A stretch of DNA of 64,000 nucleotides from Verrucomicrobiota bacterium (GCA_030749225.1 JASMKO010000057.1:4724-68723); one strand, 5' to 3'; counted from the first letter of the stretch, positions 1 through 61,876 are shown. Notes: generated by a model not told the origin, from the sequence alone. Numbers and translations are program-made.

Positions 1-232
1 GGTTCTCGGCCTCCTTGTTGAGTTCAATCCACTCCTGCTGATCCTCCGGCACGTTGTCCTCGGCGAAGATGGCATCCACCGGACACTCCGGCACGCAGGC
101 ATCACAGTCGATGCAGGTGTCCGGATTGATCAGCAACCGATCCGGTGCCTCATGGAATGCCTCCACCGGGCAAACATCCACGCAACTGGTATAAACACAA
201 TCTACACACGCTCCTGTTACTACAAATGCCAT
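1..232 (-). CDS. fdxA: 7Fe-type ferredoxin (FdxA-like); 3' end runs off the window
   Basis: Not in the ORF track because there is no stop inside the window. The reverse complement from the ATG at 232-230 reads MAFVVTGACVDCVYTSCVDVCPVEAFHEAPDRLLINPDTCIDCDACVPECPVDAIFAEDNVPEDQQEWIELNKEAEN. It carries CxxCxxxxCxxxCP plus CxxCxxCxxxCP cluster motifs. Confidence 0.85.
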   Translation of the reverse strand, partial: MAFVVTGACVDCVYTSCVDVCPVEAFHEAPDRLLINPDTCIDCDACVPECPVDAIFAEDNVPEDQQEWIELNKEAEN

Positions 233-363
233 AATCTAATCGTTTTTCTTCTTTAATCTAATTAACGCCAAAGCAGGGAGTTTAGATTGCTTTGAAAACG
301 AGACAAGAAATCAGTTAAGAATGCAAACAGGTCTCATTATCACTTTACTGCTTGGTGCAACGG

Positions 364-384
364 TTAGTCGATGTAAACGAACTC
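364..384. repeat. Left copy of a 21-bp direct repeat (TTAGTCGATGTAACGAACTC-type; actual sequence ttagtcgatgtaaacgaactc). It is an orphan copy of the codons EFVYID+stop of a DUF1553 gene
   Basis: Matches 12882-12902 at 20 of 21 positions, with 19 contiguous, in the same orientation. It sits in AT-rich non-coding DNA with no ORF attached. Confidence 0.7.
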
Positions 385-738
385 AATATGTGTTATTTGA
401 TCAACATTTTCAGTGTTTTTTGAAAACACAAAACCTTAATCACACTTTTTAAGGCCATCAAAGTTGCCTGTTTGTCAGCAAATGAATTGCATCAATATTG
501 GTTCAAACGGACAGCTTTTCCATGATCTATGAAAACCAAATCCAGCTGACTTCACTGCGCAGTATTAGCAACAGCCCAAAGGCATTGCACTCTGAGCTAA
601 ATCTTGTAAACCACTTCGATTACCCCTCTAAGCGACTGGTGTTGTGAATTTTAGGAAGCCCTCATCCCTTCCCCACCTTCCCTTTTGCTGGCACACCTAT
701 GTTTCTGCTGCCATTATTTCTTTACCACGATTTCTGTA

Positions 739-789
739 ATGAAACACATACTAACAACAATCGCAGCCGTGGTTCTGGTGAGGTGTTGA
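739..789 (+). pseudogene. Head-only remnant of the ANK-lipoprotein signal peptide (MKHILTTIAAVVLVRC*)
   Basis: atgaaacacatactaacaacaatcgcagccgtggttctggtgaggtgttga is a close copy of the 'head' repeat at 2132 and 3342. The lipobox Gly is mutated to Arg and a stop follows immediately. The next 9 nt (786-794, TTGAAAGCT) match the 'tail' repeat. Confidence 0.5.
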
Positions 790-810
790 AAGCTTTAAGA
801 TAAGTCCAAA

Positions 811-1704
811 ATGAAAATAAATTGTTCAAACTGCAATCAACGCTTGGAAATACCTGAAGAACTTGCTGGGCAGACCATTGAGTGCCCTGCTTGTAATACC
901 AGCTTGGTTGTGGCATCCATCGAAGTACCTCCACCTGCAACACCTCAAATTAGGGTTACAGCACCGCAAGCAAGCGCACCACAAAAACCTCCGACAAAAA
1001 GAAAAATCGCAGCACCACCCATAGCTGCTTCCCCCAAGAAAACAAAATCACTGATTCCCAAGATAGCCATTGGTGCTATTGCAGGTGTTGCTGTCGTGGT
1101 TTTGATTATGATTTTTTCAGGTGCCTCGAAGGATGTTTCGGAATCTAACCCAACAACAGGCAGAATTGAATGGAAGCCGCAGGGATCGTCATCTCAACCA
1201 TTTGAATCAGTTGCGCAATTTGCCGAACAGAGAGCTACAGGAAAGAAGCTATCTAACGCGATAAGAAATAACGATATTGAAGAAGTAAAAACTTTATTGG
1301 CTGATGGCATAGACCTAAACCAATCCACCTACGGAGCCTTTGGGTCGCCATTGAGTCAGGCGATATCATCAGGCCAAAAAGAGATTGTTGAATTGCTTAT
1401 TACTAATGGCGCAGATGTAAATGCGAAGCGTTTTCAGAACATAACTTATTTACATGATGCTGCCTATGAACATAGAAAGGAAATCGTCGAACTTCTAATT
1501 GCCAATGGAGCGGATGTGAATGCTAAGGCCAGAGATGACATCAAAGGCACAACACCTCTGGATTCCGCCAATATGGGATTTGGATCAAAAAGAGGTAGAG
1601 TTAATTTACCTGCAAATCTCAAAAAAAATCGCACTGAAATTGCTGACATTATTCGCAAACACGGCGGCAAGACAGCTGAAGAATTAAAAGCTGAAGGGAA
1701 ATAA
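811..1704 (+). CDS. Zinc-ribbon / single-TM / ankyrin-repeat protein with the conserved ...RKHGGKTAEELKAEGK C-terminus
   Basis: The N-terminus MKINCSNCNQRLEIPEELAGQTIECPACNTSL is a CxxC...CxxC zinc ribbon. It is followed by a Pro-rich linker, a TM helix (IAIGAIAGVAVVVLIMIF) and ANK repeats (IVELLITNGADVNAK / IVELLIANGADVNAK). Confidence 0.85.
   Translation: MKINCSNCNQRLEIPEELAGQTIECPACNTSLVVASIEVPPPATPQIRVTAPQASAPQKPPTKRKIAAPPIAASPKKTKSLIPKIAIGAIAGVAVVVLIMIFSGASKDVSESNPTTGRIEWKPQGSSSQPFESVAQFAEQRATGKKLSNAIRNNDIEEVKTLLADGIDLNQSTYGAFGSPLSQAISSGQKEIVELLITNGADVNAKRFQNITYLHDAAYEHRKEIVELLIANGADVNAKARDDIKGTTPLDSANMGFGSKRGRVNLPANLKKNRTEIADIIRKHGGKTAEELKAEGK
1651..1704 (+). repeat. Junction repeat, tail-only copy (IRKHGGKTAEELKAEGK*)
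   Basis: attcgcaaacacggcggcaagacagctgaagaattaaaagctgaagggaaataa aligns with the tails at 3105-3160 and 11046-11101. Confidence 0.8.
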
Positions 1705-1712
1705 GAAAAACA

Positions 1713-2135
1713 ATGCTTATGCCTATAAAACCGAGAAACTTAATTGGGTTCTTCTTAGGCATACCGTTTATATGGATAGGATGTGACCATTTCATCAGAC
1801 CAGAAATATTTGATCTAATTGTTCCGAATTATTTGGGGTTCCCACGTTTCTGGACAATAGCTAGCGGAGTGTTTGAAATTCTTCTTGGGATAGGAATCAT
1901 GCTACCTCCTTGCCGTCGATCGACAGCTCGTTTTTTAACGTTTTTTTTGATGTGTGTTTATTTGGCTAATTTAAATATGTGGTTAAACGACATACCATTT
2001 AATGGTACAGTACTTAGTCAAAATGGTCACATTATCAGGCTCCTAGTTCAGTTAGCGCTAATTTGCATTGGTCTTTGGCTTGCTGAATTAATAGGAGGAA
2101 ATACCAGTAGAGAATTGAAAGCTGAAGGCAAATGA
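1713..2135 (+). CDS. DoxX-like small membrane protein that carries an ANK-type ...SRELKAEGK tail
   Basis: 140 aa with 4 predicted TM segments. The motif HFIRPEIFDLIVPNYLGFPRFWTIASGVFEILLGIGIMLPP resembles the DoxX-like family. The last 14 aa (IGGNTSRELKAEGK) parallel the ANK tail HGGKTGEELKAEGK. The stop overlaps the next ATG as ATGA. Confidence 0.6.
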   Translation: MLMPIKPRNLIGFFLGIPFIWIGCDHFIRPEIFDLIVPNYLGFPRFWTIASGVFEILLGIGIMLPPCRRSTARFLTFFLMCVYLANLNMWLNDIPFNGTVLSQNGHIIRLLVQLALICIGLWLAELIGGNTSRELKAEGK

Positions 2136-2215
2136 AAAACCTCCTACCCACAACAATCGCAGCCGTGGTGCTGGTGGGGTGTAGGGAGTCGCAGCAGTTG
2201 GCTCCTGCACCAGAA
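2112..2215 (+). repeat. Junction repeat, tail plus head copy
   Basis: gaattgaaagctgaaggcaaATGAaaaacctcctacccacaacaatcgcagccgtggtgctggtggggtgt...gtcgcagcagttggctcctgcaccagaa is about 90% identical by eye to 3342-3445. Confidence 0.85.
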
Positions 2216-3160
2216 GCAAAACCAGCTGAACCAGTTATCGAAGCCGCACAGTCAGCGGAGTTCTCCAAACCGTTGTCGGAAGCAAATAGTGCGCTAATGG
2301 ATGCGGCCAAGAGAGGAAACATTGAAGCAATCAAACAACACTTGACCGATGGTGCGGATGTGAACGTGAAGGGAATTGGGGGAATGGCGCCTTTGCATCG
2401 TGCGGCTCGTGAAGGACACAAGGAAGCCTCAGAACTTCTCATCACCAATGGCGCGGATGTAAACGCGAAGGATAAGAGGGGAAGGACTCCTTTGCATCGT
2501 ACGGCTCGTGAAGGACACAAGGAAGTCGCCGAACTGCTGATTGCCAAAGATGCAGATGTGAATGCGAAGAGTGAGTCCGGTTTATTTAAAGGCGAAACAC
2601 CGCTAGATGAAGCCATCAAGCGCAAACGGCCCGAAGTCGCCGACCTTCTTCGCAAACACGGAGGTAAATACAGTTCAATCGCCGTAGCTGCTAAAGCAGG
2701 AGATGTTGAAGCATTAAAGAAGTTTTTGGCTGATGGCGTGGATGCAAGTGCGATAGGCCTTTTGTCTGCGGCGGCTTCTGGGGGTCACAAGGAATTCGTA
2801 GAACTACTGATTGCCAATGGTGCGGATGTTGCTGCCAAGAATGAATATGGCAGTACTCCTTTGCATAGTGCGGCAACCAAGGAAATAGCCGAATTACTGA
2901 TCGCCAACGGTGCAGACATAAATGCGAAGATTAATGATGGATCGTCACCTTTGCTTGCCGCGGCTATAAAAGGTCACAAGGAAGTCGCTAGGCTATTGAT
3001 CGCTAATGGCGCGGATGTGAATGCAAGGAGTGAATCTGTTCTTGGAAAGGACAAGACAGCGTTAGATTGGGCCGTTGATCAAGGCTACACTGAAATCGCC
3101 GACCTCCTCCGCAAACACGGCGGCAAGACGGGTGAAGAATTGAAAGCTGAAGGGAAATGA
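2132..3160 (+). CDS. Ankyrin-repeat lipoprotein (two fused ANK modules)
   Basis: MKNLLPTTIAAVVLVGC has a lipobox (LVGC). There are multiple ANK repeats (TPLH..A...GH.E.AELLI.NGADVNAK). An internal cap LLRKHGGK lies mid-protein, and the C-terminus is LLRKHGGKTGEELKAEGK. Confidence 0.9.
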   Translation: MKNLLPTTIAAVVLVGCRESQQLAPAPEAKPAEPVIEAAQSAEFSKPLSEANSALMDAAKRGNIEAIKQHLTDGADVNVKGIGGMAPLHRAAREGHKEASELLITNGADVNAKDKRGRTPLHRTAREGHKEVAELLIAKDADVNAKSESGLFKGETPLDEAIKRKRPEVADLLRKHGGKYSSIAVAAKAGDVEALKKFLADGVDASAIGLLSAAASGGHKEFVELLIANGADVAAKNEYGSTPLHSAATKEIAELLIANGADINAKINDGSSPLLAAAIKGHKEVARLLIANGADVNARSESVLGKDKTALDWAVDQGYTEIADLLRKHGGKTGEELKAEGK

Positions 3161-3166
3161 AACACT
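3105..3166 (+). repeat. Junction repeat, tail plus the first 9 nt of the head
   Basis: ctcctccgcaaacacggcggcaagacgggtgaagaattgaaagctgaagggaaATGAaacac. Confidence 0.85.
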
Positions 3167-3333
3167 TAATACAGACACTGCTGAAATTTGGTAAACGTTC
3201 CTTCAAAGCAAATTATGGTGAAGCCGTTTCTGTGACACGCAAAATCTACAATTCTGTTGTTATGGTAACGGCAACCATACTTTTCGTCTTTATTATGTAT
3301 GGGTTGATGGACATGGTGTTTTTGTCCAAGTGA
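3157..3333 (+). CDS. Possible 58-aa single-TM protein that starts with the head ATG (below the ORF-track cutoff)
   Basis: The ATG at 3157 overlaps the upstream TGA as ATGA. Translation: MKHLIQTLLKFGKRSFKANYGEAVSVTRKIYNSVVMVTATILFVFIMYGLMDMVFLSK*. I recognise no homology. Confidence 0.3.
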   Translation: MKHLIQTLLKFGKRSFKANYGEAVSVTRKIYNSVVMVTATILFVFIMYGLMDMVFLSK

Positions 3334-3341
3334 ATTTAATA

Positions 3342-3935
3342 ATGAAACACCTCCTACTCACAACAATCGCAGCCGTGCTTCTGGTGGGGTGTGGTGAGTC
3401 GCAGCAATTGGCTCCTGCACCAGAATCAAAACCCACTGAACCAGTTCCAGAAGCTACACAACCAAACCAGTCGACAGACAAAACACCAGACATATCAATT
3501 CACGATGCTGCTTGGAACGGAAACATTGAGGCAGTTAAACAGCATATTGCTGCTGGTACGGATTTGAATGCTAAGGATGAACTTGTCGGAAGGACCCCAT
3601 TGCATTGGGCGGCAACTAATAATGTTCGTAGGGAAATCGTCGAACTGCTAATCGCCAATGGTGCCGATGTGAATGCGATGGACAGCATGGCCGGTATGAC
3701 GCCTTTACATCGTGCGACTTTGGATGGTTACAAGGAAATCGCGGAAGAGTTTATCGCCAACGGTGCGGATGTGAATGCGAAAGATAACAATAACGAAACA
3801 CCTCCTACTCACAACAATCGCAACCGTGGTGCTAGCGGGGAGGGCCAAGTATGTCGATTTACGCGAGGCAATGCCATCGCGCTCCATCTTCCCGTAGCGG
3901 TTTCAAAGTGTCGTCATCCGATACCTTCGGCTTGA
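3342..3935 (+). pseudogene. Truncated/chimeric ankyrin-repeat lipoprotein gene
   Basis: The start is intact (MKHLLLTTIAAVLLVGCGESQQLAPAPE) and about 3 ANK repeats follow. At 3792 the ANK frame runs into another head copy whose ATG is mutated to ACG (aacgaaacacctcctactcacaacaatcgcaaccgtggtgctagcgggg). From there the reading is out of frame (…DNNNETPPTHNNRNRGASGEG…) and no terminal cap is present. Confidence 0.65.
3792..3840 (+). repeat. Junction repeat, head-only copy (start codon ATG changed to ACG) embedded in the truncated ANK gene
   Basis: Aligns with 2131-2180, 3341-3390 and 11098-11148. Confidence 0.8.
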
Positions 3936-3967
3936 TCTTCTGCTGAACACCCACCAAACTTTCGGCT

Positions 3968-6523
3968 GTGATTTCAAACAATATATTCCGTCTTAGCTGC
4001 GCGCTTGTTGTCTTCAACTCCAATTGTTTGACCCAACTTTTCGGGCAAGGTTCCAAAGTGGATTATGAGCGTGCAATTGGATTAAGGGATAGGGTTCGAA
4101 ATAAAGTCTTCAAGAAGCATGTCAATCCCAAGTGGTCTCCCGATGGAGACCGTTTCTGGTATCGCAACGATTTGTCGACCGACCGACGTGAGTTTGTCTT
4201 GGTGGATACAAGCAAGGGCGAACGTCGATTGGCGTTCGACCATGTCAAGGTTGCCGCGACCTTGGCCAATGCTCTTGGTCAATCGGTAGATGCTGAGAAA
4301 CTTCCCATCGATAAGTTGGCTTTTACCGATAACCCGAATCGCTTACGCTTAATAGGAAAGGGTAATAGTTGGGAACTGGACCTTAAAACTAGCGAGTTAG
4401 GTGAATTCACTTCATCCGTTAAAGAGCTTATGTCGCTTGAGCCACCCGAAGCCATTCGCCCGTCCGGCAGTAACGGGCAAGAAACCTATGTCACATTCCG
4501 CAATGTAACGGATCAGATCATTCGCTTGGTTTGGGTGTCAGGCGATGGCGGACGGCATCTTTACGAGGTGATTGGCGATAAATCAGAATTCAAACAACAC
4601 ACTTATGCAAATCATGTGTGGCTCATTGAAACTGACGAAGGCAAACGGCTCGGCATCTATGAGGCGAAACCCGGAAACCCAACCGTGATTATCGATGGCC
4701 GTACGAAGGCCTTGAAAAAGAGTACAGTCAAGTCCGATGAAGACGACGAGCAACCTGAACACGAAAAATACAGTTCGCCCCGAGGCTTGCGTTCGCCTGA
4801 TGGCATATGGGAGGTGTCGATCAAAGAACATAACATTTGGATTCGGGGCAAGGACGGTCAGCATTTTCAACTCAGCAAAGATGGCACTGATGAGGATGGT
4901 TATCGCAGAGGTGATGTCCACTGGTCACCTGACTCGAAACGGTTGACAGCTTTGCGAACGCTCAAGGAAGAGGAGCATCTAGTTAATGTTGTTGAGTCGT
5001 CCCCAAAGGATCAATTGCAACCTAAGTTGCATTCGTTCCGATATCTTAAACCGGGCGATCGAGTGGCAAAACAACGGCCCAAGTTGTTTAATGTTGGGGA
5101 AAGACAAGAAATCCAGATTGAACAGGGTCTATTTGACAATCCGTGGCGTATCAATCGCATTCGCTGGGCCAAGAACTCACGGGAGTTTACCTTTGAGTAC
5201 AACGAGCGAGGACATCAGGTGCTTAGAATCATTTCCGTAAACTCGCGGAATGGAAAAACCAAGCCGGTCGTTGAAGAAACCAGCAACACGTTTGTCGATT
5301 ATTCCCAGAAACATTATGAATACTGGCTTGGCGATGGTGAAGAATTGATTTGGATGAGTGAACGTAACGGATGGAATCATCTCTACCTTTTCGACACGCG
5401 AGAAAAGAAACTGAAAAACGCCATCACACAAGGCGATTGGGTGGTAAGAAAGGTTGAGCATATCGACGAAGCCAGACGACAAATATGGTTTCAGGCAATG
5501 GGAATTTATCCGGAACAGGATCCCTATTACATACATCACTGCCGTGTTAATCTCGATGGCACCGGCTTGACTGTTTTAACCGAAGGAAATGGAACGCACG
5601 AATTACAGTGGTCTCCGAGTCGACGGTTCTTTGTCGATAAATGGTCACGAGTGGATCAACCACCTGTGCACGAGCTGCGTTCAGCTGATGGGGAATTCAT
5701 TTGCGAACTGGAACGAGCTGATTGTGTGCAACTATATAGAACCGGGTGGAAATTGCCCGAGCGTTTTGTAACCAAAGGCCGAGATGGGGAAACTGACATC
5801 TTTGGAGTAATATGGCGTCCGACTAATTTTGATCCGACGAAACGCTATCCGGTGATAGAAAACATCTATGCTGGGCCACATAGCTTCTATGTGCCAAAAG
5901 CATTCCGTGATTACTACGGTCAACAGCGAATGGCCGAGCTGGGATTCATTCTAGTCCAAATTGATGGGATGGGAACCAACTGGCGTTCGAAAAAGTTTCA
6001 CGATGTTTGCTGGCAAAACATTAAGGATGCCGGCTTTCCGGATCGAATATTATGGATTAGAGCTGCGGCCAAAGAATACCCGGAAATGGATTTGTCTATC
6101 GTCGGTATTTACGGTGGTTCAGCAGGAGGTCAAAACACAATGAGCGGTTTGCTGCATCATGGGGACTTTTATAAAGTCGGCGTTTCAGACTGCGGTTGTC
6201 ATGACAACCGTATGGATAAAATCTGGTGGAATGAAGCATGGATGGGTTGGCCAATCGGCCCGGAATACTCTGAAAACAGTAATGTCACTCATGCCCACAA
6301 ACTAAAGGGTAAGTTATTGTTGATTGTGGGTGAACTTGATCGGAATGTCGATCCTGCAAGCACTATACAAGTCGTTGATGCTTTGATAAAAGCGGACAAG
6401 GATTTTGACTTTCTTCTTATCCCAGGAACAGGTCACGGCGCAGCCGGAACTCCCTACGGTCGTCGCAGGCAAATGGATTATTTTGTAGAACACATCCTCA
6501 AAATGAAACCTAGATGGGAGTGA
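3968..6523 (+). CDS. S9-family serine peptidase (dipeptidyl-peptidase IV / prolyl oligopeptidase-like)
   Basis: 851 aa. The N-terminal region is beta-propeller-like. The C-terminal alpha/beta-hydrolase part carries the nucleophile motif IYGGSAGGQNT, then GELDRNVD and GTGHG, consistent with a Ser-Asp-His triad order. The N-terminus is hydrophobic and signal-like. The start (GTG at 3968) is uncertain. Confidence 0.88.
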   Translation: MISNNIFRLSCALVVFNSNCLTQLFGQGSKVDYERAIGLRDRVRNKVFKKHVNPKWSPDGDRFWYRNDLSTDRREFVLVDTSKGERRLAFDHVKVAATLANALGQSVDAEKLPIDKLAFTDNPNRLRLIGKGNSWELDLKTSELGEFTSSVKELMSLEPPEAIRPSGSNGQETYVTFRNVTDQIIRLVWVSGDGGRHLYEVIGDKSEFKQHTYANHVWLIETDEGKRLGIYEAKPGNPTVIIDGRTKALKKSTVKSDEDDEQPEHEKYSSPRGLRSPDGIWEVSIKEHNIWIRGKDGQHFQLSKDGTDEDGYRRGDVHWSPDSKRLTALRTLKEEEHLVNVVESSPKDQLQPKLHSFRYLKPGDRVAKQRPKLFNVGERQEIQIEQGLFDNPWRINRIRWAKNSREFTFEYNERGHQVLRIISVNSRNGKTKPVVEETSNTFVDYSQKHYEYWLGDGEELIWMSERNGWNHLYLFDTREKKLKNAITQGDWVVRKVEHIDEARRQIWFQAMGIYPEQDPYYIHHCRVNLDGTGLTVLTEGNGTHELQWSPSRRFFVDKWSRVDQPPVHELRSADGEFICELERADCVQLYRTGWKLPERFVTKGRDGETDIFGVIWRPTNFDPTKRYPVIENIYAGPHSFYVPKAFRDYYGQQRMAELGFILVQIDGMGTNWRSKKFHDVCWQNIKDAGFPDRILWIRAAAKEYPEMDLSIVGIYGGSAGGQNTMSGLLHHGDFYKVGVSDCGCHDNRMDKIWWNEAWMGWPIGPEYSENSNVTHAHKLKGKLLLIVGELDRNVDPASTIQVVDALIKADKDFDFLLIPGTGHGAAGTPYGRRRQMDYFVEHILKMKPRWE

Positions 6524-6560
6524 TATCTTCACTGGCCGCTCTAAACCACCCCGTGGCCAC

Positions 6561-6663
6561 CTACTTCCTCTGCGAACTCGGTGGCAAGTCCAATGGGGAA
6601 CTGGAAGCTGAGGGCAAATGAGACATCTTCCTACTCACAACAATCACCGCCGTGCTTCTGATG
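6561..6663 (+). repeat. Junction repeat, degenerate tail plus head copy downstream of the peptidase gene
   Basis: ctacttcctctgcgaactcggtggcaagtccaatggggaactggaagctgagggcaaATGAgacatcttcctactcacaacaatcaccgccgtgcttctgatgg. The tail reads ...LCELGGKSNGELEAEGK*. The head has a 1-nt insertion, so it is frameshifted. Confidence 0.75.
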
Positions 6664-6815
6664 GATCCAAATTGGCCGCCTATGGCATCAATTGCCCGCT
6701 GTCCCCAGGGTGCAGACCGCCGGTTTCAGAAAGGATTGGGTTTCGTTTTCGGTGATCCCGACGGCGGTATTCACAGCAAAAAATTGCGGGATCTCTCAAT
6801 GAGATGAATTGAAGC

Positions 6816-9530
6816 TTACAGTGATGATTGATTAAGGGGATCGCTTTCAAACCATCTTGTCCACCATTCTGGTTTATAGATGATACGAAAGATGCTGGTG
6901 TATTCATCGGTCCATAATGGCGAATCTTCTTGCGCACTTAGTTTTGTGCGCGGATAATTATAATCCTCGATTTGCCGGATAAATTTTTCATTGTCCGATA
7001 GCAATATCCAGGTGCAGTCATAAATCCAATCCTCCCCAACACTCTCACCGTTATCACTGTTCACCACAACCATCATCATGTTCATCTCCATGGCCAGACG
7101 TCGCACCACGGTTTTGAGATCCAGATATTTGTTGGAAACATGGATCGCTATGACGCCTTGTGGATGGGTGTGTTCTCTGTAAAGCCCCATTGATTCCTTA
7201 GTCAATAGATGCACCGGTATAGAGTCGCTGCTAAAAGCATCCAACACCAGCAAGTCAAAGTTTTGTTTATTGCCTTTATTAAGCTCTTGTTCCATCGACA
7301 ACCGGGCGTCACCTAAGACAATTTCCACTTCTGCTCCGCGGATTTGGGCATTGGTTAGAAATGTGAATTGACTTTGATCTTCCGATGACAGGTTTATCAC
7401 TTGTGGATTGATGTCATAGAAGCGATAGCTGTCACCAACCTGCGCATAGCCTGCAACCGTTCCAACACCTAGCCCTATCACACCCACGCGTTTTCTCTCG
7501 GCTTGGGTATGTTGCATCGACAATCCCACGCCGCTTTCTGGCGTGTAGTATGTGGTAGTTCGATTGCAAATTTCCAGCGCCTCATACTGAATGCCATGTG
7601 TAATCCGACCGCTCCATAGTGCTAGATAGGGTTCATCGGAGTCGTCGAAATATCGGGTTATCATAAGTGTGCCATAAAAATTTCTGTCCAAATGTACGGC
7701 ATCCTGCTGTGTCTTGATACCCTGAATGGTTAAGCCCATGCCCAGAGTCCCCAATGCCGGCACAAGTAGCAGAAGATAGCCGGCATATCGAAGCCCCCAT
7801 CCTTCTTGGTGTTTCGTGCTAAACCAAAAAATGCAATTAAGAGGAAGGGTTACGGCCACGGCGATCAACAATAATCGTATCCATTGTTCGCCTGGGAGAT
7901 TGCTAATCTTGAGCCATTCAGAAATGTTAATACCAATAGTAAAATCCACCATCTTCTCCATAGTCCAAAGCGAAACCAGTACTATCAGCACCTGTGCACT
8001 CAAAATAGAGAAAATAATCATCCTAAAAGATCTGCAGCATGTCGCGAGGGAACCGGAATATGACCTCAATAAACTTAACCCCCGCCATTTCACGGCAGTT
8101 GAATCCTCAGAATTGAGTCCCTGCAACGTCAAGACCAGTAATCCAACTGCCCAAAGTGAAATGTGATACTCCCAGTAACCATGGAACAGCATTGGAGCCA
8201 GTAAAGCCACGAAAAAGCCACCCAAGGCGCCGCCAGCAGAAATAGTCAAATAATACATGGTGAGTTGGGCCGGTTTCGGGCGAAGTCTGTACAACTCACC
8301 GTGGCATATCATGCAACTCAAGAATAGCGCACCGCAGAAAACCAATATTTGCCCAACAATGTGGAAATCTACCCCTCGAAACATCACCCATAACACGCCT
8401 GCCCAAAACAGTATCAACAGCGGTATGTAGATTTCTCGAATATACCAGCGTGGGCTATGGAAACTAATTATGAAGGTAACTAGGTATAGGGCCAACGGCA
8501 GCATCCAGAGGAAGGGCACCACTGCCATATCCTGACACAACTTGTTGGTGGTGCCCATGAGTATGGCAGTGCCGCAGGCCGGCAAAGCGAGCCAGAAACA
8601 CAATATCACCAACCTTCGCAACCGGCTTTCATTCTCTTCTAGTATGGTTTTCTCTCTTTTGGCTTCGTCATTATCCAGATTTGGCACAGATCGCAATGAC
8701 CATGCCAGATAGCCGCATACCAGCACGTAAAACACCATCCCAATCGACCACCAGTTGATCTGCGCAGTACGCGTCGTCCACGGCTCCACCAGCAATGGAA
8801 ATCCGAGTAGTGCCAGAAGTGAGCCAACATTGGAAAGCGCATAGAGTCGGTAAGGTGAGCATCCTGGATTAGCCTTCGCAAACCAAGCCTGTACCAGTGG
8901 GCTAGTGGCCGAGAGAACGAGGTATGGCAGGCCAATACTTTCAGTCAGTAGCAGCAAAATTTGTACTGTTGGAGATTCGTTGCCTCTCGGTTTGAGGCTT
9001 TCGTTTGGTGTTATGGGTAGCGTGATGGTGGCTAATAAAAGTAATACTCCATGTATAATCACCTGTTTGCGTATCGGTAAAAAACGATTCACGAGGTGAG
9101 CATACGCATAACCGACTAGTAACAGAGATTGGAAGAACAGCAGGCAGGTTGTCCACACACTGGGCGCACCGCCGAACCAAGGCAGTATGTACTTGCCGGT
9201 CAATGGTTGGACAAAAAACAGCAGGAGCGCACCCATAAAAATTGTCACGGCAAAGACAGGTAGACTCGGGGGCACGGGTTGAAGTCTCGTTTGAGTCACT
9301 CTCAAAGAGAACAGGCCACCAATTAATGAAAAAAACAATGTAAAAGCCTTGATTATGAGTATAATCGATGAGGGCAAGCTTGTAGGCAAATCATCTTCTC
9401 CGCAGAGGACGGACTGCGCAACAAACCTCACATCATTGATTATAATGTGCCTCCGTTCTTTTGCCAGACCATCCAATACTATCCAGAGTTTGAGAGTGCC
9501 TTGAGCCGTAAGAAAGAAGCTGTACTCCAC
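6816..9530 (-). CDS. Polytopic membrane protein fused to a spermidine-synthase-like (class I methyltransferase-fold) domain
   Basis: About 600 aa of TM-rich sequence includes VQPLTGKYILPWFGGAPSVWTTCLLFFQ. The C-terminal part has GVIGLGVGTVAGYA (a SAM/dcSAM-binding Gly-rich loop) and DLLVLDAFSSDSIPVHLLTKE, as in spermidine-synthase-like proteins. The true start is probably internal to the track ORF. Confidence 0.75.
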   Translation of the reverse strand: MEYSFFLTAQGTLKLWIVLDGLAKERRHIIINDVRFVAQSVLCGEDDLPTSLPSSIILIIKAFTLFFSLIGGLFSLRVTQTRLQPVPPSLPVFAVTIFMGALLLFFVQPLTGKYILPWFGGAPSVWTTCLLFFQSLLLVGYAYAHLVNRFLPIRKQVIIHGVLLLLATITLPITPNESLKPRGNESPTVQILLLLTESIGLPYLVLSATSPLVQAWFAKANPGCSPYRLYALSNVGSLLALLGFPLLVEPWTTRTAQINWWSIGMVFYVLVCGYLAWSLRSVPNLDNDEAKREKTILEENESRLRRLVILCFWLALPACGTAILMGTTNKLCQDMAVVPFLWMLPLALYLVTFIISFHSPRWYIREIYIPLLILFWAGVLWVMFRGVDFHIVGQILVFCGALFLSCMICHGELYRLRPKPAQLTMYYLTISAGGALGGFFVALLAPMLFHGYWEYHISLWAVGLLVLTLQGLNSEDSTAVKWRGLSLLRSYSGSLATCCRSFRMIIFSILSAQVLIVLVSLWTMEKMVDFTIGINISEWLKISNLPGEQWIRLLLIAVAVTLPLNCIFWFSTKHQEGWGLRYAGYLLLLVPALGTLGMGLTIQGIKTQQDAVHLDRNFYGTLMITRYFDDSDEPYLALWSGRITHGIQYEALEICNRTTTYYTPESGVGLSMQHTQAERKRVGVIGLGVGTVAGYAQVGDSYRFYDINPQVINLSSEDQSQFTFLTNAQIRGAEVEIVLGDARLSMEQELNKGNKQNFDLLVLDAFSSDSIPVHLLTKESMGLYREHTHPQGVIAIHVSNKYLDLKTVVRRLAMEMNMMMVVVNSDNGESVGEDWIYDCTWILLSDNEKFIRQIEDYNYPRTKLSAQEDSPLWTDEYTSIFRIIYKPEWWTRWFESDPLNQSSL

Positions 9531-9679
9531 AGTATAAAGAAACTAAGCGACACAAACGCCAAGCAAGCAAAACCGCTCGTCCAAAGGCGATAACATCTTG
9601 TAAATGGCCAAGTGCAATGTTTTACAGCAATAAAAAACGCCTTGAAAGTAGCCACCGTTCCGATGACTGTTGCCTTGCT

Positions 9680-11101
9680 ATGAAGTCCTTACTGCTCGCA
9701 ACTAACCTAGCGGTGTTGTTGGTGGGATGTGCCCCAAGTGTAGATATTTGGGAAGCTGCGTGGATGGGAGACGTCGAAGCCGTCAAATCGCAATTGGCTG
9801 CTGGCGCGGATTTGAACAAAAAGGATAGTTTTGGAAGAACTCCTTTGTATTATTCGGCCTTGGAAGGTCACACGCAAGTTGCTGAACTGCTTATCTCCAA
9901 AGGTGCAGATGTGAATGCGAAGACTAATACTGGTAGAACTCCTTTGCATTATGGGGCTCGTGCAGGTCATAAGGAAATCATCGAACTACTTATCTCCAAG
10001 GGTGCGCTTGTGAATGCAAAGGTTGTTGATGGCAAAACACCCCTGGATTGGGCAGAAAAGTTATATGAATGGGAATTACCCGAAGTAAAAGCAGCCAAAA
10101 AAGAAGCTGCCGACCTTCTGCGCAAACATGGTGGCAAAACGGGTGAAAAATACTTAATTCATTTAGCAGCAAGAGAAGGTAATATCAAGGCTGCCAAACA
10201 ATATCTGCTTGATGGTGTGAATGCGAAAGATGGGATTGGTAGGACTCCTTTGCATCTGTCGGCTATGGGTGGTCACCATGAAGTCGGCGAACTGCTTATA
10301 GCAAATGGCGCGGATGTGAATGCAAAGGATAATAAGGCAGCAACTCCTTTGCATTATGTGCTAAGGGGAACGAAAGTTGCCGAACTGCTTATAACAAACG
10401 GCGCGGATGTGAATGCAAGGGATAATAAGGGAGCGACTCCTTTGCATTTTACGGCTACTTATGGCCGTAAGGAAGTCGCCGAACTACTCATTGCCAATGG
10501 TGCGGATATCAATCAGAAGGATGCAGATGGCTGGACTCCTTTGCATTTTGCAGCGAATTGGGGTCACAAGGCAATCGTTGAACTACTCATTGCCAATGGT
10601 GCGGGGATAAAAGTAAGTTCTAGTGAACCCAAAGGCAATACACCGCTAGGTATTGCCATCCAGAATAGCTATCCCGAAATCGTCGAGCTTCTCATCGACA
10701 AAGGTACGGATGTGAATGCGAAAGATGTTGGGGGAGGGACTCTTTTGGGCTGGGCGGCTCGTTTTGGTCACGCGAAAGTTGCTGAACTGCTTATCGCCAA
10801 AGGTGCAGATGTGAATGCGAAGGATAAGTATGGAAGGACTCCTTTGCATCGTGTGACTACGTACGGAGGCCGCCGTCGAACGCGGCTTGGTAAGACTTAT
10901 TTAGCTCTGGAAGATTACGTGGAAATTACTGAACTACTTGTTGCCAAAGGTGCGGATGTGAATGCAATCATTGCGTCTGGTCGATACCAAGGAAAGACGT
11001 TGTTAGATCGAGCCGGTGAACAAAAGCAACCCGAAATTGCCGCACTCCTCCGCAAGCACGGCGGCAAGACAGGTGAAGAATTGAAAGCTGAAGGGAAATA
11101 A
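9680..11101 (+). CDS. Ankyrin-repeat lipoprotein (two or more fused ANK modules)
   Basis: I reset the start to ATG 9680 (MKSLLLATNLAVLLVGC, lipobox). There are more than 10 ANK repeats. An internal cap LLRKHGGKTGEK lies mid-protein, and the C-terminus is LLRKHGGKTGEELKAEGK. Confidence 0.9.
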   Translation: MKSLLLATNLAVLLVGCAPSVDIWEAAWMGDVEAVKSQLAAGADLNKKDSFGRTPLYYSALEGHTQVAELLISKGADVNAKTNTGRTPLHYGARAGHKEIIELLISKGALVNAKVVDGKTPLDWAEKLYEWELPEVKAAKKEAADLLRKHGGKTGEKYLIHLAAREGNIKAAKQYLLDGVNAKDGIGRTPLHLSAMGGHHEVGELLIANGADVNAKDNKAATPLHYVLRGTKVAELLITNGADVNARDNKGATPLHFTATYGRKEVAELLIANGADINQKDADGWTPLHFAANWGHKAIVELLIANGAGIKVSSSEPKGNTPLGIAIQNSYPEIVELLIDKGTDVNAKDVGGGTLLGWAARFGHAKVAELLIAKGADVNAKDKYGRTPLHRVTTYGGRRRTRLGKTYLALEDYVEITELLVAKGADVNAIIASGRYQGKTLLDRAGEQKQPEIAALLRKHGGKTGEELKAEGK

Positions 11102-11148
11102 AACACCTCCTACTCACAACAATCGCAGCCGTGCCGGTGGTGGGGTGT
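11046..11148 (+). repeat. Junction repeat, tail plus head copy (head start codon lost: ATG changed to ATA)
   Basis: ctcctccgcaagcacggcggcaagacaggtgaagaattgaaagctgaagggaaATAAaacacctcctactcacaacaatcgcagccgtgccggtggtggggtgt. Confidence 0.85.
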
Positions 11149-11340
11149 AATTCAACTCGCACTGAACTAAGCCATCTCCCGGGTATCTCAATTCATCAAG
11201 CTGCCACTAGAGGGGACATTAAAGCCGCTAAACAGCACTTGATGGCCGGGGTAAGCCCTGATTAAAAGCCAAAAGCGGATGGGTACCATTACACTACGCT
11301 TCTGGTGGGCGCCATTATGACATCGTTAAACCATATGGTG
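11098..11340 (+). pseudogene. Decayed ankyrin-repeat lipoprotein gene
   Basis: The start codon is mutated. The frame reads IKHLLLTTIAAVPVVGCNSTRTELSHLPGISIHQAATRGDIKAAKQHLMAGVSPD* and stops at 11265. A shifted frame then reads ...GWVPLHYASGGRHYDIVK..., which is an ANK remnant. Confidence 0.65.
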
Positions 11341-11554
11341 GTAGAGAAGGCCCAAGGCATCCAGAGAAGGCCGCCGCAACAGTAAAGACCAGCCGACAAG
11401 TAAATGGGTCTCTTCACGGCTTGGTTGACTCTAACACCCCGCAGTCCTACCCCTCAAAATGAAATAAGAAGGCCGCACAGGGCAGAGCGACCTCGGCCAT
11501 TCTTTTGAAGAAAAATAATTTGATAAATAATAAATAAGACATATAATTGCCGCC

Positions 11555-12010
11555 ATGAATGCGACAGCCGGATTAGTTCTAGCCATCCTCATCTTTGGGG
11601 CGGCGATGTTCATGCTGGGGCAGATTATCCCCGGCATCTTGGTGTTGACCAAGGTCTTGGCGGTGTTTCTGGTCGTCGTCCTTGGCATTGTGGTTCCCGT
11701 GCAGGCGGCTAGCCTGAAACTGGCGATCCGCGCAATCTTCAGGGAGGACGTGCCGTTCAAGGCCTCCTACGTCTTGATGGCAATCCTGCTCATCGTTTAT
11801 GTCGTGATCATGATGGTGGCCTTTAATACGCCCATCATGGCCTACGCGGGGCAGTTTATCGTCGGATCTTTTCTCTTGGGCAAATTCGTCGAGATGGATG
11901 GGGAATCGATCGGCATCCTGAAAGGTGCGTTGGTCTCGCTGCTGACCACGGCCATCACCTACGGAATCTGGTTCGTAGCCGGCACCACGATCATGGGGAT
12001 GCTGAGATAG
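11555..12010 (+). CDS. Hypothetical small integral membrane protein (about 4 TM)
   Basis: 151 aa and strongly hydrophobic (LVLAILIFGAAMFMLGQIIPGILVLTKVLAVFLVVVLGIVV...). The antisense ORF 11579-12064 is Arg/Asp/His-rich and looks non-coding. Confidence 0.5.
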   Translation: MNATAGLVLAILIFGAAMFMLGQIIPGILVLTKVLAVFLVVVLGIVVPVQAASLKLAIRAIFREDVPFKASYVLMAILLIVYVVIMMVAFNTPIMAYAGQFIVGSFLLGKFVEMDGESIGILKGALVSLLTTAITYGIWFVAGTTIMGMLR

Positions 12011-12167
12011 AGGCTGCTGACTCCTAGAGATCGTCGCAGCAAGTGTTGTGAGGGTCGGCGGCATCGCAACGATCCGGCTCGAGCGGCTTGGTTTTCTTCT
12101 GCCGCATCAGCCGCTCGTACTCCTCCCGCTTGACGGTGAACTGGCAGTGGCGTTTCATTGGGTTGAT

Positions 12168-12659
12168 ATGTCAGAAGAACCATTGCAATCCACGCAGGCT
12201 ATCCCTGACCTCGTTACCAAGGCTATCCCTGACGACGAGCGCCTATGGGTCCCGCAGGCCGACAAGATTTGGTTCCGGCCACTGATTTTGAACACCACCA
12301 ATGGAGAGTGGGTTAACCTATTGCGAATTGCCAAAGGCGGTGTGATGAATCGCCACCGCCACCCCGCGCCGGTCTACGGCTACGTGCTAAAGGGCGAGTG
12401 GCGCTACCTCGAGCATGACTGGGTGGCCAAGCCGGGTACGTTCGTCTTCGAGCCGCCCGGCGAGATTCACACGCTTGTGGTCGACGAGGAAGTGGAGGAA
12501 ATGATCACGCTCTTTCATGTTTTCGGCGCGTTGGTGTACTATGACGAGGACGACAACCTCATCCAGCATGACGATGTGCACACAAAGATCGAGATGTGCC
12601 GTGCGCACTTCGAGCAGGTTGGCCTCGGTGCTGATTACGTCAAGCAGTTCATCCGCTAA
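12168..12659 (+). CDS. Cupin-fold protein, 2,4'-dihydroxyacetophenone-dioxygenase-like family
   Basis: I reset the start to ATG 12168 (MSEEPLQ...). Supporting motifs are LWVPQADKIWFRPLILNTTNGEWVNLLRIAKGGVMNRHRHPAPVYGYVLKGEWRYLEHDW and GEIHTLVV, which match the cupin metal-ligand pattern. Confidence 0.7.
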   Translation: MSEEPLQSTQAIPDLVTKAIPDDERLWVPQADKIWFRPLILNTTNGEWVNLLRIAKGGVMNRHRHPAPVYGYVLKGEWRYLEHDWVAKPGTFVFEPPGEIHTLVVDEEVEEMITLFHVFGALVYYDEDDNLIQHDDVHTKIEMCRAHFEQVGLGADYVKQFIR

Positions 12660-12881
12660 ACACGCTATTCACTTGGGGGAAAGACAGGTTCTGGGTCGAA
12701 ATGAGAATTTTTTCTCACTCTCACTCGCTCGTCTTCTCCAGCCCGACATCCTCTGTCAGTTCCTTGGCTCGCTGGCGAGAGACGTTAATTATCCTGTTTT
12801 TGAGGTCATTTTTTCAAAGCAGGTCATAGTCCTTCCACAGCCCGAGTTCCGGGGCCCCCTCCCCCAAATCTGGCTAGGTCT

Positions 12882-12902
12882 TCAGTCGATGTAAACGAAC
12901 TC
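12882..12902. repeat. Right copy of the 21-bp direct repeat; it forms the functional 3' end (EFVYID*) of the DUF1553 gene
   Basis: tcagtcgatgtaaacgaactc versus ttagtcgatgtaaacgaactc at 364-384. Confidence 0.7.
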
Positions 12903-15785: not shown

Positions 15786-15823
15786 CGTCGTTTCTGCTTC
15801 GACGGAAATTAGACGCGCTGGGA

Positions 15824-15839
15824 CACGATTGCAATCGTG
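15824..15839. promoter_or_regulatory. Perfect 16-bp palindrome CACGATTGCAATCGTG in a 101-bp divergent intergenic region (candidate operator)
   Basis: I read it directly from the sequence. It lies between the divergent starts at 15785 (-) and 15887 (+). Confidence 0.35.
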
Positions 15840-15886
15840 CAGTTGAAGCATTGAAAACCGCCCCGATTTAGGTACGTTCCCGGCAC

Positions 15887-18800
15887 ATGACCAGTTCGCC
15901 CGAAAACCAGAACCGCTGTAAACCGCGCATTTTTTTACGCGCGGGGCTGTTGCTGCTGGCTCTGCTCTTTGCCACCCCGCCCAGTCAGGCGGTGACACTG
16001 ATCAACTACGAATCGGACTGGAAACTGTGGCGCGGCCGCAAAACCCCCAGCCGACCCGACTATTGGGCCTGGACCAAGGCAGCCCATGACGACTCGGACT
16101 GGGAAACCGCCCCGACCCCAGTATTCTTCGGCGAGAAGGTCACCGGCGGCACCGAACTGGAGGACATGAAGAGCCGCTACAACTCTTTTTTCCTCCGGCG
16201 CAAGTTCCACGCACCCGATCCGGACACAATTACCTCGATGACCCTGCGAGCCAAGGTGGACGACGGATTCGTCGCCTATATCAACGGCACTGAGGTGGCG
16301 CGGCACAATGTCGAAACCGAAAAACCCAAGTACAGCTCGGCTGCCTCCAAGGCAGCATCGGAGCCACTGCGTTTCCGCAACTATGCACTGAAAAACCCGG
16401 TTGACTTTCTTGTCGACGGCGAAAACACGATTGCCGTGATTGTGCTCAACCAGCGGCGCACCAGCCCGGACGCATTGTTCGATGCACGCCTTTCTGCAGT
16501 TTCGGTAGAAAGCGTCCCGCCCAAGGTAGCATCGGTCGATCCGCCACCCGGACTGACTTCGAACCTGAGCCGTGTCCTCATCACCTTTACGGAGCCAGTC
16601 ACCGGCTTGGATGCCGCCGACCTGCTGGCAAACGGCGTGCCAGCGCAGTCGGTCGAGGGCAGCGGCCGGTCGTGGCTGTTTCAACTCGGCAGCCTGCCCC
16701 AAGGCAAGGTGCGCCTCCACTGGGCCAACGGCCACGGCATCACCGACCAAGCGCAGAACCCAAACGCGTTCAACGCCACCGATACGGACAACCGCTGGAG
16801 CTACACCCACGCTGACGACAACCCGCCGTACGTCAAGCGAACCAACCCGCCGGCCGGGCTCACGGTGAAGTCGCTCGACGCAATTGAGGTGGAGTTCAGC
16901 ATGAACGTCAGTGGCGTGGACGCCAACGACCTCCAGATCAACGGTCAGCCGGCCCAGAGCGTGACCGGGATCAGTAAAAGCCGCTACCGGTTTGCGCTTG
17001 GCCAAACCCCCGGCCCCAAAGTGAAAATCTCCTGGAACCCGGACGCAGGCATCACCGGCACGAACCCGTTCAAGAAAGCCTTCCTGCCGCTTGGCTGGTT
17101 TTACCGAGTAGACCCCAACGCGCCACCGCCACCGCGCATCGTGATCTCCGAGATCATGTATCACCCAATCGAGGAACCGGACTTTGACAAGCGCGGCATG
17201 CCGGTGCTCGACCTGTCAGAGGACGTGCATGAGTTCATTGAACTGCACAACTTCAGCCGTGAAACTGTTGCTCTTGACAACTGGCGGATCAGCGGCGGCA
17301 TCGACTACGCCTTCCCGTCGGGAACCAAGATCGAGAGCGGTGACTACCTAGTCGTGGCGAAAAACCCCGAGCGCTTGACCGCCATCAAGGAATACCGCCT
17401 ATCCAGCGTGACGGTGCTGGGACCGTACACAGGCGTGCTTAGCAACAACGGCGAGCGAGTGAGCGTGGAGAACGACGGCGGCAACGCCGAGGACACCGTC
17501 CGCTACTCGGCCCAATTTCCCTGGCCCATGGGCGCAGACTCTATCGGCGCGGGGCCGAAGTGGTCCGGCATCGACCCGATGAAACACCAATATCGCGGCA
17601 TGTCACTGGAGCGGATCAACTTCTCCTTACCGGGCAGTGACCCTGCCAACTGGGTAGCGTCGCCTCTCGAGAAAAACGCCACGCCGGGCCGGTCGAACCA
17701 CATTGCCCGAAAGCGCTCGATGCCGGCACCCATTGTTACCTCCATCCGCGCGGCTGACCCCAACGGGGACACTCTGATCAGCAAACTCGAGGCCGTAACG
17801 ATCGCGGCCAAATTCTCCACAAATGAAACACTCACCGATGTCACGCTGGAATATTTTTACGACAACCTCGAAAAGGAGGGTGAAACCTTGGCCAAGCGGG
17901 AGATGAAACTGGAGCAAGGCAGTTGGACACACACGCTTCCCAAGAAACCAGACCGGACACTGGTGCGCTATCGTATCCTGGCCGACCTGGGCCAAGGTCT
18001 ACAGAAAATTTCGCCCCGCAAGAGCGATCCATACCAGTGGCACTCCTATTTCGTAATGCCGAAATTTAGCAATACACGAAAATACTTCGAGCTACTCATT
18101 CCGCGGAACGGCACCAGCCAACTCTCGAAAAACATGACTGCCAACCCGCGCAGCGGCTACCGCCCTGCGAAGGATGTCGTCCCACGAGGCCCGTGGAACG
18201 ACACCGTGCACGGCATCCTTGTTTATAACGGCGAGGTGCGCGATGTGTATGCCCGCTGGAACGGAAGCTTCTACCGCCGAAACAGCGGGCGCAACTCCTG
18301 GAAGGTACGCCTGCCGCGCTACAACCAGTTCGATGGCCAGAGCGACTTACTGTTCATGGACAAGGACAACGTGACCGTTGCCGGCCACACGCTGTACCGA
18401 GAACTGGGCCTGCCTACCTCGCACACCGAGTGGGTCGATGTCGCCATCAACAAGCGCAAGATGCGGCGCCTAATGGTGGAGGATCACAACGACCGTTTGC
18501 TCGAAAATTACCATGAGGACCAGGCCCGCCGAAACCCCGACACGGAGGTCGAGCCCAACGGCCACATCTTCAAGTCGAGTGGCATCCTGCAGAACCTCGG
18601 CCCGTACGGCCGGGGCGACGGCGGCAAACTGGGAACCAACGACGGCTGGGCGTCGTTGCAACGTTACGAGTGGATTTACTCTTCCAAAAACCAAGACTGG
18701 AAGGGACACACCGAACTGAAGGAAATGATCGATGGCCTAGCCAAGAACAAGAGCAACCGCGCTCGCCTCAAGAAATGGTTTGAGGCCAACTGGGACATCG

Positions 18801-61748: not shown

Positions 61749-61876
61749 CAGGAATGCGCCGTGGCGCGAAGGCGGCCAAGCTAACACCCGGCCGTGACTA
61801 AAATCCATCCCTGAATCCTTTCAAAAAACCATTGCCTGTTGCCACCTTGGACGGTTTCGCGGCAGAGTCGCCGCCA

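Follow-up and report, generated by a model that had tools for sequence, protein, structure and literature searches.

A probable horizontally acquired, palindrome-poor island at the stop-codon end of a DUF1549/DUF1553 gene in a marine verrucomicrobial chromosome

Between a ferredoxin gene and a DUF1549/DUF1553 gene, near the left end of a 64,000-nucleotide (nt) stretch of Verrucomicrobiota bacterium DNA (hereafter the window, over the whole of which coordinates are counted), lies a segment that carries the ankyrin-repeat (ANK) genes ANK1 to ANK4, a DoxX-like gene, an S9 peptidase gene, a large membrane protein gene with a spermidine-synthase-like domain, and a short block with a small membrane protein and a cupin. 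This segment, 385–12,881 (~12.5 kb), is probably a horizontally acquired island without a recombinase gene, inserted site-specifically at the stop-codon end of the DUF1549/DUF1553 gene and poor in the host palindrome TTGGCCAA as a late arrival. Judging from sequence comparison, the insertion appears to have separated DUF1553 from its usual downstream partners, ferredoxin and DUF1501. The features of the locus are given below, with the guanine-plus-cytosine content (GC) of third codon positions as GC3; loci fetched for comparison are given as L numbers.

1–232, minus strand: 5′ part of the ferredoxin gene, native left flank (GC3 0.65)
233–363, no strand: native DUF1553-to-ferredoxin spacer, collinear with the post-stop spacer of L004, L021, L007, and L016
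364–384, minus strand: left direct repeat, the orphaned last 21 nt of DUF1553 (EFVYID + TAA)
385–560, plus strand: conserved island end with a hairpin, GTGTTTT-TTG-AAAACAC (7-bp stem, 413–429)
735–786, plus strand: orphan fragment of a lipoprotein signal-peptide module (repeat family D6, alignment A1)
811–1704, plus strand: ANK1, with zinc-ribbon, transmembrane, and ankyrin regions, ending ...KHGGKTAEELKAEGK (Pfam Ank; GC3 0.33)
1713–2135, plus strand: DoxX-like membrane protein with a grafted ...RELKAEGK tail (weak DoxX/MauE matches; GC3 0.32)
2132–3160, plus strand: ANK2 lipoprotein (Pfam Ank), whose start codon overlaps the preceding stop (ATGA)
3330–3935, plus strand: truncated ANK3, which runs into a decayed signal-peptide module at 3792–3843 (D6, A1)
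3870–6588, plus strand: S9/DPP-IV peptidase block, gene at 3968–6523 (Pfam DPPIV_N, Peptidase_S9)
6580–6669, plus strand: decayed junction module, i.e., ANK C-terminal tail, stop, and signal-peptide start (D6, D9, A1)
6816–9530, minus strand (convergent): 904-aa polytopic membrane protein with a spermidine-synthase-like C-terminal domain
9617–11,101, plus strand: ANK4 lipoprotein, eight Pfam Ank-matched stretches (GC3 0.40)
11,097–11,260, plus strand: pseudo-ANK, ATG mutated to ATA and truncated after the first repeat (D6 copy 92%, A1)
11,480–12,881, plus strand: core-like block (GC3 0.79 and 0.74) with a small membrane protein (11,555–12,010, plus), a 44-aa open reading frame (ORF; 12,024–12,158, minus), and a ChrR-type cupin (12,168–12,659, plus; Pfam Cupin_7)
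12,882–12,902, minus strand: right direct repeat, the functional DUF1553 3′ end (EFVYID + TGA)
12,882–15,998, minus strand: DUF1549/DUF1553 (PSCyt2/PSD1) gene, the insertion target and native right flank (Pfam PSCyt2, PSD1)

The borders of the island are marked by a duplication of the end of DUF1553. A perfect 19-nt direct repeat, AGTCGATGTAAACGAACTC (repeat family D14), lies at 366–384 and again at 12,884–12,902; with the stop codon the repeat unit is 21 nt long and has one mismatch, the functional gene ending in TGA and the orphan copy in TAA. Native DUF1553 codons lead into the right copy. Behind the orphan copy come the 130-nt spacer and ferredoxin, which align base for base with the sequence behind DUF1553 in L004, L021, L007, and L016, and the alignment to these empty sites breaks down upstream of the orphan repeat. 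The sequence-only reading, which had bounded the island at 233–12,881, was right about the right border; the left one moves to 385, the spacer 233–363 being native.

In nine relatives (L004, L005, L007, L008, L010, L014, L016, L017, and L021), the site is empty, and DUF1553 is followed directly by ferredoxin, typically at ~130–210 nt (837 nt in L017), with DUF1501 next where the contig is long enough. As in an att-type site, the 21-nt core is found once in the empty sites of L004, L005, L014, and L021. The flanks are native by the same comparison: the window ferredoxin protein is 87–99% identical to the ferredoxin behind DUF1553 in relatives, and the complete 82-aa Fer4 gene, then DUF1501, is present in L003, whose DNA is identical to the window. 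The DUF1553 orthologs in L004–L021 share 73–88% protein identity with the window protein (967 aa in public gene calls) and come from marine Verrucomicrobiota metagenome-assembled genomes (MAGs) from the Black Sea, the eastern tropical North Pacific (ETNP), Station ALOHA, Saanich Inlet, and Tara. The window core is collinear with L005 (83% identity over the 10 kb tested), and its remaining genes are ordinary chromosomal ones, i.e., sulfatases, an FGGY kinase, a BatA/MoxR/VWA operon, PtsI, phosphatidylserine decarboxylase, and a NUDIX protein. The synteny comparison that the sequence-only reading had proposed thus yielded nine relatives without the island and a precise 21-nt scar. Absence from the same site in related genomes and flanking direct repeats are both traits of genomic islands, and a single gain by the window lineage explains the pattern far more parsimoniously than numerous exact losses would.

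Relatives differ in their DUF1553/ferredoxin/DUF1501 neighbourhood. The long DUF1553–ferredoxin spacer of L017 (1621–2456) carries small ORFs, one of them homologous to window 12,024–12,158; L008 (4850–6881) has ~2 kb inserted between ferredoxin and DUF1501; and in L009 (1–8500) DUF1501 comes before DUF1553, and the low-GC DNA upstream contains genes for an ANK protein and for a sulfatase with a signal peptide.

Base composition sets the segment apart along the same lines. Taken in 1-kb intervals, GC is 0.40–0.49 at 1–11,000, 0.52–0.55 at 11,001–13,000, and 0.54–0.65 over the remaining 51 kb; the maximum-likelihood single change point falls at 11,560 (0.466 to the left versus 0.603 to the right, log-likelihood ratio 357), and the likelihood scan places a second, smaller step at ~220, at the end of the ferredoxin gene. 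The seven genes between 811 and 11,101 have a GC3 of 0.32–0.51 versus 0.76 in core genes, and composition-normalised tetranucleotide usage correlates with that of the core at r = 0.58–0.73 in island intervals versus 0.84–0.93 in every core interval. Base, codon, and oligonucleotide composition therefore all deviate in the manner of a genomic island (GC 0.47 versus 0.60), and the AT-rich left part described in the sequence-only reading is real: sliding GC, GC3, and tetranucleotide analyses all find a clear break. The same reading had called 11,450–12,880 intermediate, which holds for GC (0.52–0.55 at 11–13 kb) but not for codon composition: the small membrane protein (GC3 0.79) and the cupin (0.74) are like the core (0.76), and the stretch consists of core-like genes and AT-rich spacers.

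The second compositional mark is the octamer TTGGCCAA, which occurs 51 times in the window versus 1.5 copies expected from shuffles. The core holds 49 copies in 51.1 kb (0.96/kb; e.g., at 13,081, 36,064, and 50,379–50,458), far above the 0.65 (mononucleotide) to 3.9 (third-order Markov) expected, and the extended consensus is longer than eight nt, gcgCTTGGCCAAGcgc. Coding frames contain 46 of the 49 core sites, read as Leu-Ala-Lys/Asn (34) or x-Gly-Gln (12), and Leu-Ala-Lys is spelled TTGGCCAAR in 29 of 39 instances, although TTG makes up 18% of Leu codons. The sites are also conserved: 7 of 8 are kept in L015 versus 14% of all 8-mers (P = 8.5e-6), and 8 of 11 in L005 versus 31% of background octamers, with some turnover among relatives via one-mismatch variants. 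The palindrome is, in other words, a signal in the DNA itself, one that prevails over codon preference and has been maintained in evolution. Its density is 0.3–1.4/kb in the close marine clade and 0.05–0.2/kb in low-GC marine Verrucomicrobiales, including L089, and it has zero copies in the high-GC Chthoniobacteraceae, Opitutus, and Planctomycetota loci examined. The palindrome is specific to this marine verrucomicrobial lineage and not a by-product of GC. A literature search for TTGGCCAA returned only unrelated matches (primers and other sequences) and no description of the palindrome, and none of the window ORFs scanned encodes a methyltransferase. The longest core stretch without the motif, 57,876–62,168 (4.3 kb), coincides with a GC dip to 0.54–0.56 and lies within and beside a gene for a 1436-aa TMEM260-like/TPR protein (57,513–61,820, minus strand).

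Left of 13,000, the palindrome occurs twice, at 4262 and 6247, which gives the island a density of 0.16/kb. The core rate predicts 12.0 copies there (Poisson P(≤2) = 5e-4), any 12.5-kb stretch of core holds at least six, and the longest core gap is 4.3 kb. Both island copies lie within the S9 peptidase block, and the remaining 9.9 kb has none. The sequence-only reading had reported the copy at 4262 and missed the one at 6247; its estimates of about one copy per kb outside and about a dozen expected inside agree with the counts, and no core region of similar size within the window is devoid of the motif, a finding that would have spoken against the contrast. Low GC alone was rejected as the cause of the scarcity, for high-GC non-relatives have zero copies and the composition-based expectation is below one in both compartments.

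The two copies in the S9 block are informative. The palindrome at 6247 is common to all five copies of the block, and the one at 4262 is found only in the window, the other copies reading TTGACCAA, TTGACCGA, or TTGAGTAA; 13 nt downstream of 4262, the other S9 copies carry TTGGCCAA where the window has TTGGTCAA. Since sites have been gained and lost within the S9 block, island DNA is not immune to palindrome turnover. Moreover, many of the sites in the core are old ones that have been maintained and that relatives share, so DNA that arrived later would lack them. The island is poor in the palindrome because it is foreign and arrived after many core sites were established, not because it is shielded. 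Its density matches that of the low-GC marine relatives, and its composition presumably reflects lower-GC lineages in which TTGGCCAA is rare.

By homology and composition, the insert is a mosaic of ~11 kb of low-GC genes and a core-like 1.4 kb that derives from a high-GC verrucomicrobial relative. The S9 block (3870–6588) is 90–91% nucleotide-identical to copies in L077, L078, L079, and L085–88, which sit in at least three settings elsewhere, among sulfatase genes (L077, L085–88) or inside another ANK array (L078, L079). Similarly, the block 6768–10,426 (the 904-aa protein and ANK4) is 91.5% identical to L082, where different genes follow beyond the junction module. The core-like DNA tells another story: 11,511–12,004 is 84.6% identical to L005 15,114–15,607, just downstream of DUF1501, a divergence equal to that of the core, and the region upstream of the small membrane protein is homologous to post-DUF1501 sequence in L008. 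A native copy of the small-membrane-protein region is kept behind DUF1501 in the window genome, as L003 is nearly identical to L014 there, and the island-borne gene at 11,555–12,010 would be a second, xenologous copy. In the native copy (L003 1–100; L014 6174–6330), the start of the small-membrane-protein gene reads ACG in place of ATG, and that gene may be decayed. The small membrane protein and the cupin thus seem to derive from a high-GC relative and not from the source of the low-GC genes, and since the insert joins low-GC cassettes to a chromosome fragment of such a relative, its immediate donor probably belonged to the same clade. Of the genes that the sequence-only reading had grouped as one set with a separate evolutionary history, the ANK, DoxX-like, S9, and spermidine-synthase-like genes keep that standing, borne out by the scar, the empty sites, codon composition, and the mobile 90–91% blocks; the small membrane protein and the cupin do not, being core-like.

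Successive array genes of unrelated function are linked by a junction module of ~110 nt, composed of an ANK C-terminal tail ...KHGGKTGEELKAEGK, a stop overlapping the next ATG, and a lipoprotein signal peptide, MKHLLLTTIAAVLLVGC. The island has seven copies, full or decayed, and L078 and L082 have more. Some copies are 92–96% identical, while neighbouring ankyrin repeats are only ~70% identical, a contrast that points to gene conversion or to recombination with the module as its substrate. The copies map as follows.

Junction-module copies in the window: 735–786, 1663–1721, 2094–2182, 3119–3177, 3341–3392, 3792–3843, 6580–6669, and 11,060–11,148
Junction-module copies elsewhere: L078 3117–3227 and 6140–6250; L082 3690–3812

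The cargo genes carry further traces of assembly from parts. The RELKAEGK tail of the DoxX-like protein is present in homologs of at least 86% identity and in none of at most 75%, the distant ones being natively placed; a DoxX-like homolog in L089 sits in a native 41%-GC context. The N-terminus of ANK1 (811–910) opens with a zinc-ribbon motif, MKINCSNCNQRLEIPEELAGQTIECPACN (the Zn_ribbon_4 match is sub-threshold), and L089 has a separate 57-aa zinc-ribbon gene (10,420–10,593) directly behind its native DoxX-like gene. These are hints that parts of the array derive from a locus like the DoxX/zinc-ribbon pair of L089. ANK2 is 375 aa long in L072 (GCA_035092285.1) versus 342 aa in the window, a difference of one 33-aa repeat, and its repeat number varies between strains (window 2346–2569 versus L072 792–916). 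The 904-aa membrane protein has no Pfam match; it scores 33 bits against NCBIfam MFS_SpdSyn, below the 40-bit cut-off, and its homologs are named ‘fused MFS/spermidine synthase’.

The target site has been used at least once more. In L078 (GCA_035092365.1, JAYKCG010001617.1; 2054–10,808), from another species, a low-GC array lies between a paralogous DUF1553 and DUF1501 and encodes an esterase, ANK, a sulfatase, ANK, a 3-keto-disaccharide hydrolase, an S9 peptidase, ANK, and a glyoxalase. The array has a 21–22-nt flanking repeat of its own, TCAGTCAATGTACACAAACTC(G), which again corresponds to the stop and six codons. Window positions 385–469 are 82% identical to the 85 nt inside the L078 left repeat, and the conserved island end as a whole (385–560) is 82% identical to L078 2046–2155 and 77% identical to L081 2428–2644, each adjoining its own left repeat; L081 has the same left junction, with 220 nt similar to the window. 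Exact and fuzzy searches found this end only in the window genome, L078/L080, and L081, and it has no match in viral contigs. A promoter-like hexamer pair lies within it at 472–499; promoter and terminator scans did not rise above shuffled expectation. The DUF1553-proximal ends of the window and L078 islands share no similarity by inverted-repeat and local-alignment search, and when 22 further ends of DUF1553-like genes from the fetched loci were scanned, a duplicated tail turned up in L078 only.

Taken together, these data favour a site-specific acquisition in which a recombinase acting in trans would recognise the conserved EFVYID-stop end of DUF1553-family genes and the island end at 385–560. 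The array may have been drawn from a flexible gene pool shared among marine Verrucomicrobiota, and such arrays may be reshuffled by recombination in the ~110-nt junction module. Horizontal acquisition, which the sequence-only reading had offered as one option, is supported by the 21-nt scar, the nine empty sites, the foreign codon composition, and the occurrence of island blocks elsewhere. The usual machinery of mobile elements was sought as well. No recombinase, integrase, or transposase was found by Pfam and NCBIfam among all island ORFs and 20 ORFs beyond 31.5 kb, a scan of the 64-kb window gave no tRNA, Rfam had no match at E ≤ 1 in 1–14,000, and a plasmid search with 233–3400 had no match; the island and the window ORFs scanned therefore lack the mobility genes and tRNA typical of genomic islands. 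Inverted-repeat and local-alignment searches showed neither terminal inverted repeats nor similarity between the two island ends. The locus does not resemble a DDE transposon or casposon, with no inverted repeat joining its ends and no transposase or Cas1 gene, nor an integron, with no integrase, no Rfam or structured-repeat match, and boundaries made of coding junction modules.

Several points weigh against this reading. With no integrase, transposase, or tRNA found, the recombinase is entirely our inference. The window and L078 repeats differ at three synonymous positions, each perfectly matching its own host gene, and such host-specific perfect repeats are not predicted by a fixed att site carried by the element and would be more in keeping with a true duplication of the target site. 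Conservation is confined to one end of the island, the DUF1553-proximal ends being unrelated. Neither a circular or excised form nor within-species presence/absence polymorphism was seen, all contigs at 99.8–100% identity carrying the island. The repeat-bounded unit includes the core-like 1.4-kb block, and the proposed donor lineage draws on composition and homolog names, not on gene phylogenies.

The host-specific repeats lead directly to the most serious competing mechanism, in which an enzyme encoded elsewhere makes a staggered cut and the filled-in ends yield the 21-nt repeats as true target-site duplications. Casposases (~14–15 bp) and IS1634-type transposases make long target duplications, and the two independent events at paralogous genes have perfect repeats of their own hosts (AGTCGATGTAAACGAACTC in the window, AGTCAATGTACACAAACTC in L078) with equal length and register, the stop codon and six codons. 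Transposition nonetheless seems rather unlikely to us, as terminal inverted repeats are lacking and only one end is conserved, the ORFs scanned include no transposase or Cas1, and a strict single target with ~20-nt duplications is more typical of att-site recombination at gene 3′ ends. Homology-facilitated illegitimate recombination, with a donor anchored in DUF1553 and a random join 21 nt before the end of the recipient gene, would suit an immediate donor that seems to be a related genome (the core-like block is 84.6% identical to L005), the breaks of two assemblies at ~13,870 inside DUF1553, and a sole repeat mismatch that falls in the stop codon. It was rejected as improbable: DUF1553 identity to four relatives is flat across 13,870, with no breakpoint, and the paralog event, with its identical 21-nt register and the conserved end abutting the repeat, is not what random end-joining would produce. 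The breaks themselves are close together, L074 ending at 13,869 and L001 starting at 13,878, and no repeat or recombination breakpoint was found at ~13,869–13,878 in DUF1553.

The other two alternatives deny that anything was acquired. A native region could be shielded from, or selected against, the palindrome by ankyrin gene conversion or unusual expression, with low GC and motif scarcity as local effects, and the sequence-only reading had raised shielding as its alternative. Ankyrin repeats do make up ~3.5 kb of the island and are internally repetitive, and some native, highly expressed cyanobacterial genes also lack the iterated palindrome HIP1 of that phylum (PMC3025956). Yet nine relatives lack the whole segment at a site that is marked by a precise scar, no copy occurs in the non-repetitive 2.7-kb gene of the membrane protein either, and the blocks recur in other genomic contexts at 90% identity; the gain and loss of TTGGCCAA within the S9 block, together with the old shared core sites, leaves shielding unsupported and makes it very improbable. 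An assembly or binning chimera of two organisms' contigs, a concern of the sequence-only reading at the borders, might be suspected from the sharp GC step and from MAG contig L001, which ends inside DUF1553 ~1 kb short of the island. Against it, the left junction is spanned by L003 (window 1–3694, from DUF1501 and ferredoxin on to ANK3) and the right one by L072 (1654–22,010), L073 (4917–18,315), and L074 (4956–13,869); these and L075 and L076 cross the junctions at 99.8–100% identity in other assemblies and samples, two Logan contigs match too, and the junctions bear a biological scar, the 21-nt repeat, not an arbitrary join. As far as public assemblies allow, a chimera is excluded, and we give it next to no credence.

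Site-specific acquisition at the DUF1553 end thus remains the favoured explanation, and as a genomic island the insert is ordinary, apart from some unusual details of construction. Of more interest as leads are the twofold use of the DUF1553-tail site, the junction modules made of coding sequence, and the HIP-like palindrome of these Verrucomicrobiota. We tentatively raise the possibility of an undescribed class of recombinase-less arrays in this clade, defined by a 21-nt duplication at the EFVYID-stop of DUF1553 paralogs (many per genome), one conserved promoter-bearing end, rebuilding through junction modules as a coding analogue of integron boundaries, and absence of the host HIP-like palindrome CTTGGCCAAG. 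The locus offers a nucleotide-exact, comparatively validated gene gain in an uncultured, abundant deep-ocean/oxygen-minimum-zone verrucomicrobial lineage, and the repeated DUF1553-end insertions and junction modules point to a specific, searchable recombination system which, if real, would explain the diversification of exported ankyrin-repeat lipoproteins and hydrolases.

Among known systems, integrase-less cis-mobilisable islands at gene 3′ ends include cis-mobilisable elements (CIMEs) derived from integrative and conjugative elements (ICEs) and, in staphylococci, ccr-less pseudo-SCC (staphylococcal cassette chromosome) elements at the 3′ end of rlmH. Like them, the window island is inserted exactly at the 3′ end of a conserved gene that stays intact, is bounded by ~20-nt repeats of terminal codons, and carries accessory cargo of deviant composition with no on-board recombinase. 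Unlike them, it has no known cognate recombinase or autonomous parent, its target belongs to a large paralogous family (DUF1553) and is not a single-copy housekeeping gene, its repeats match their own host perfectly, and it has one conserved end. Integron arrays share the co-oriented, unrelated genes beside a conserved platform end and the recurrence of blocks in other arrays; the window island differs in having no IntI or attC, in its coding-module boundaries, and in some block boundaries that fall off the module. Marine flexible islands, i.e., additive islands and the tycheposons of Prochlorococcus, differ from it in that it has no tRNA target, tyrosine recombinase, or other hallmark gene; what they have in common is a strain- or species-specific hot spot in the syntenic chromosome of an abundant marine lineage and mosaic cargo shared across relatives.

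The host palindrome, in turn, is closest to HIP1 (GCGATCGC) of cyanobacteria. The two differ in sequence (gcgCTTGGCCAAGcgc for the host motif) and phylum, and both are GC-rich 8-mer palindromes found about once per kb, far above expectation and mostly intragenic, with weaker extended flanks. In Synechococcus elongatus, scarcity of HIP1 has served to pick out xenologs (PMC3025956; see also PMC3497702 and PMC4390886), and here, too, a low motif count combined with atypical codon usage and GC flags horizontally acquired genes. A lineage-specific iterated palindrome can therefore tell vertically inherited from acquired DNA outside the cyanobacteria.

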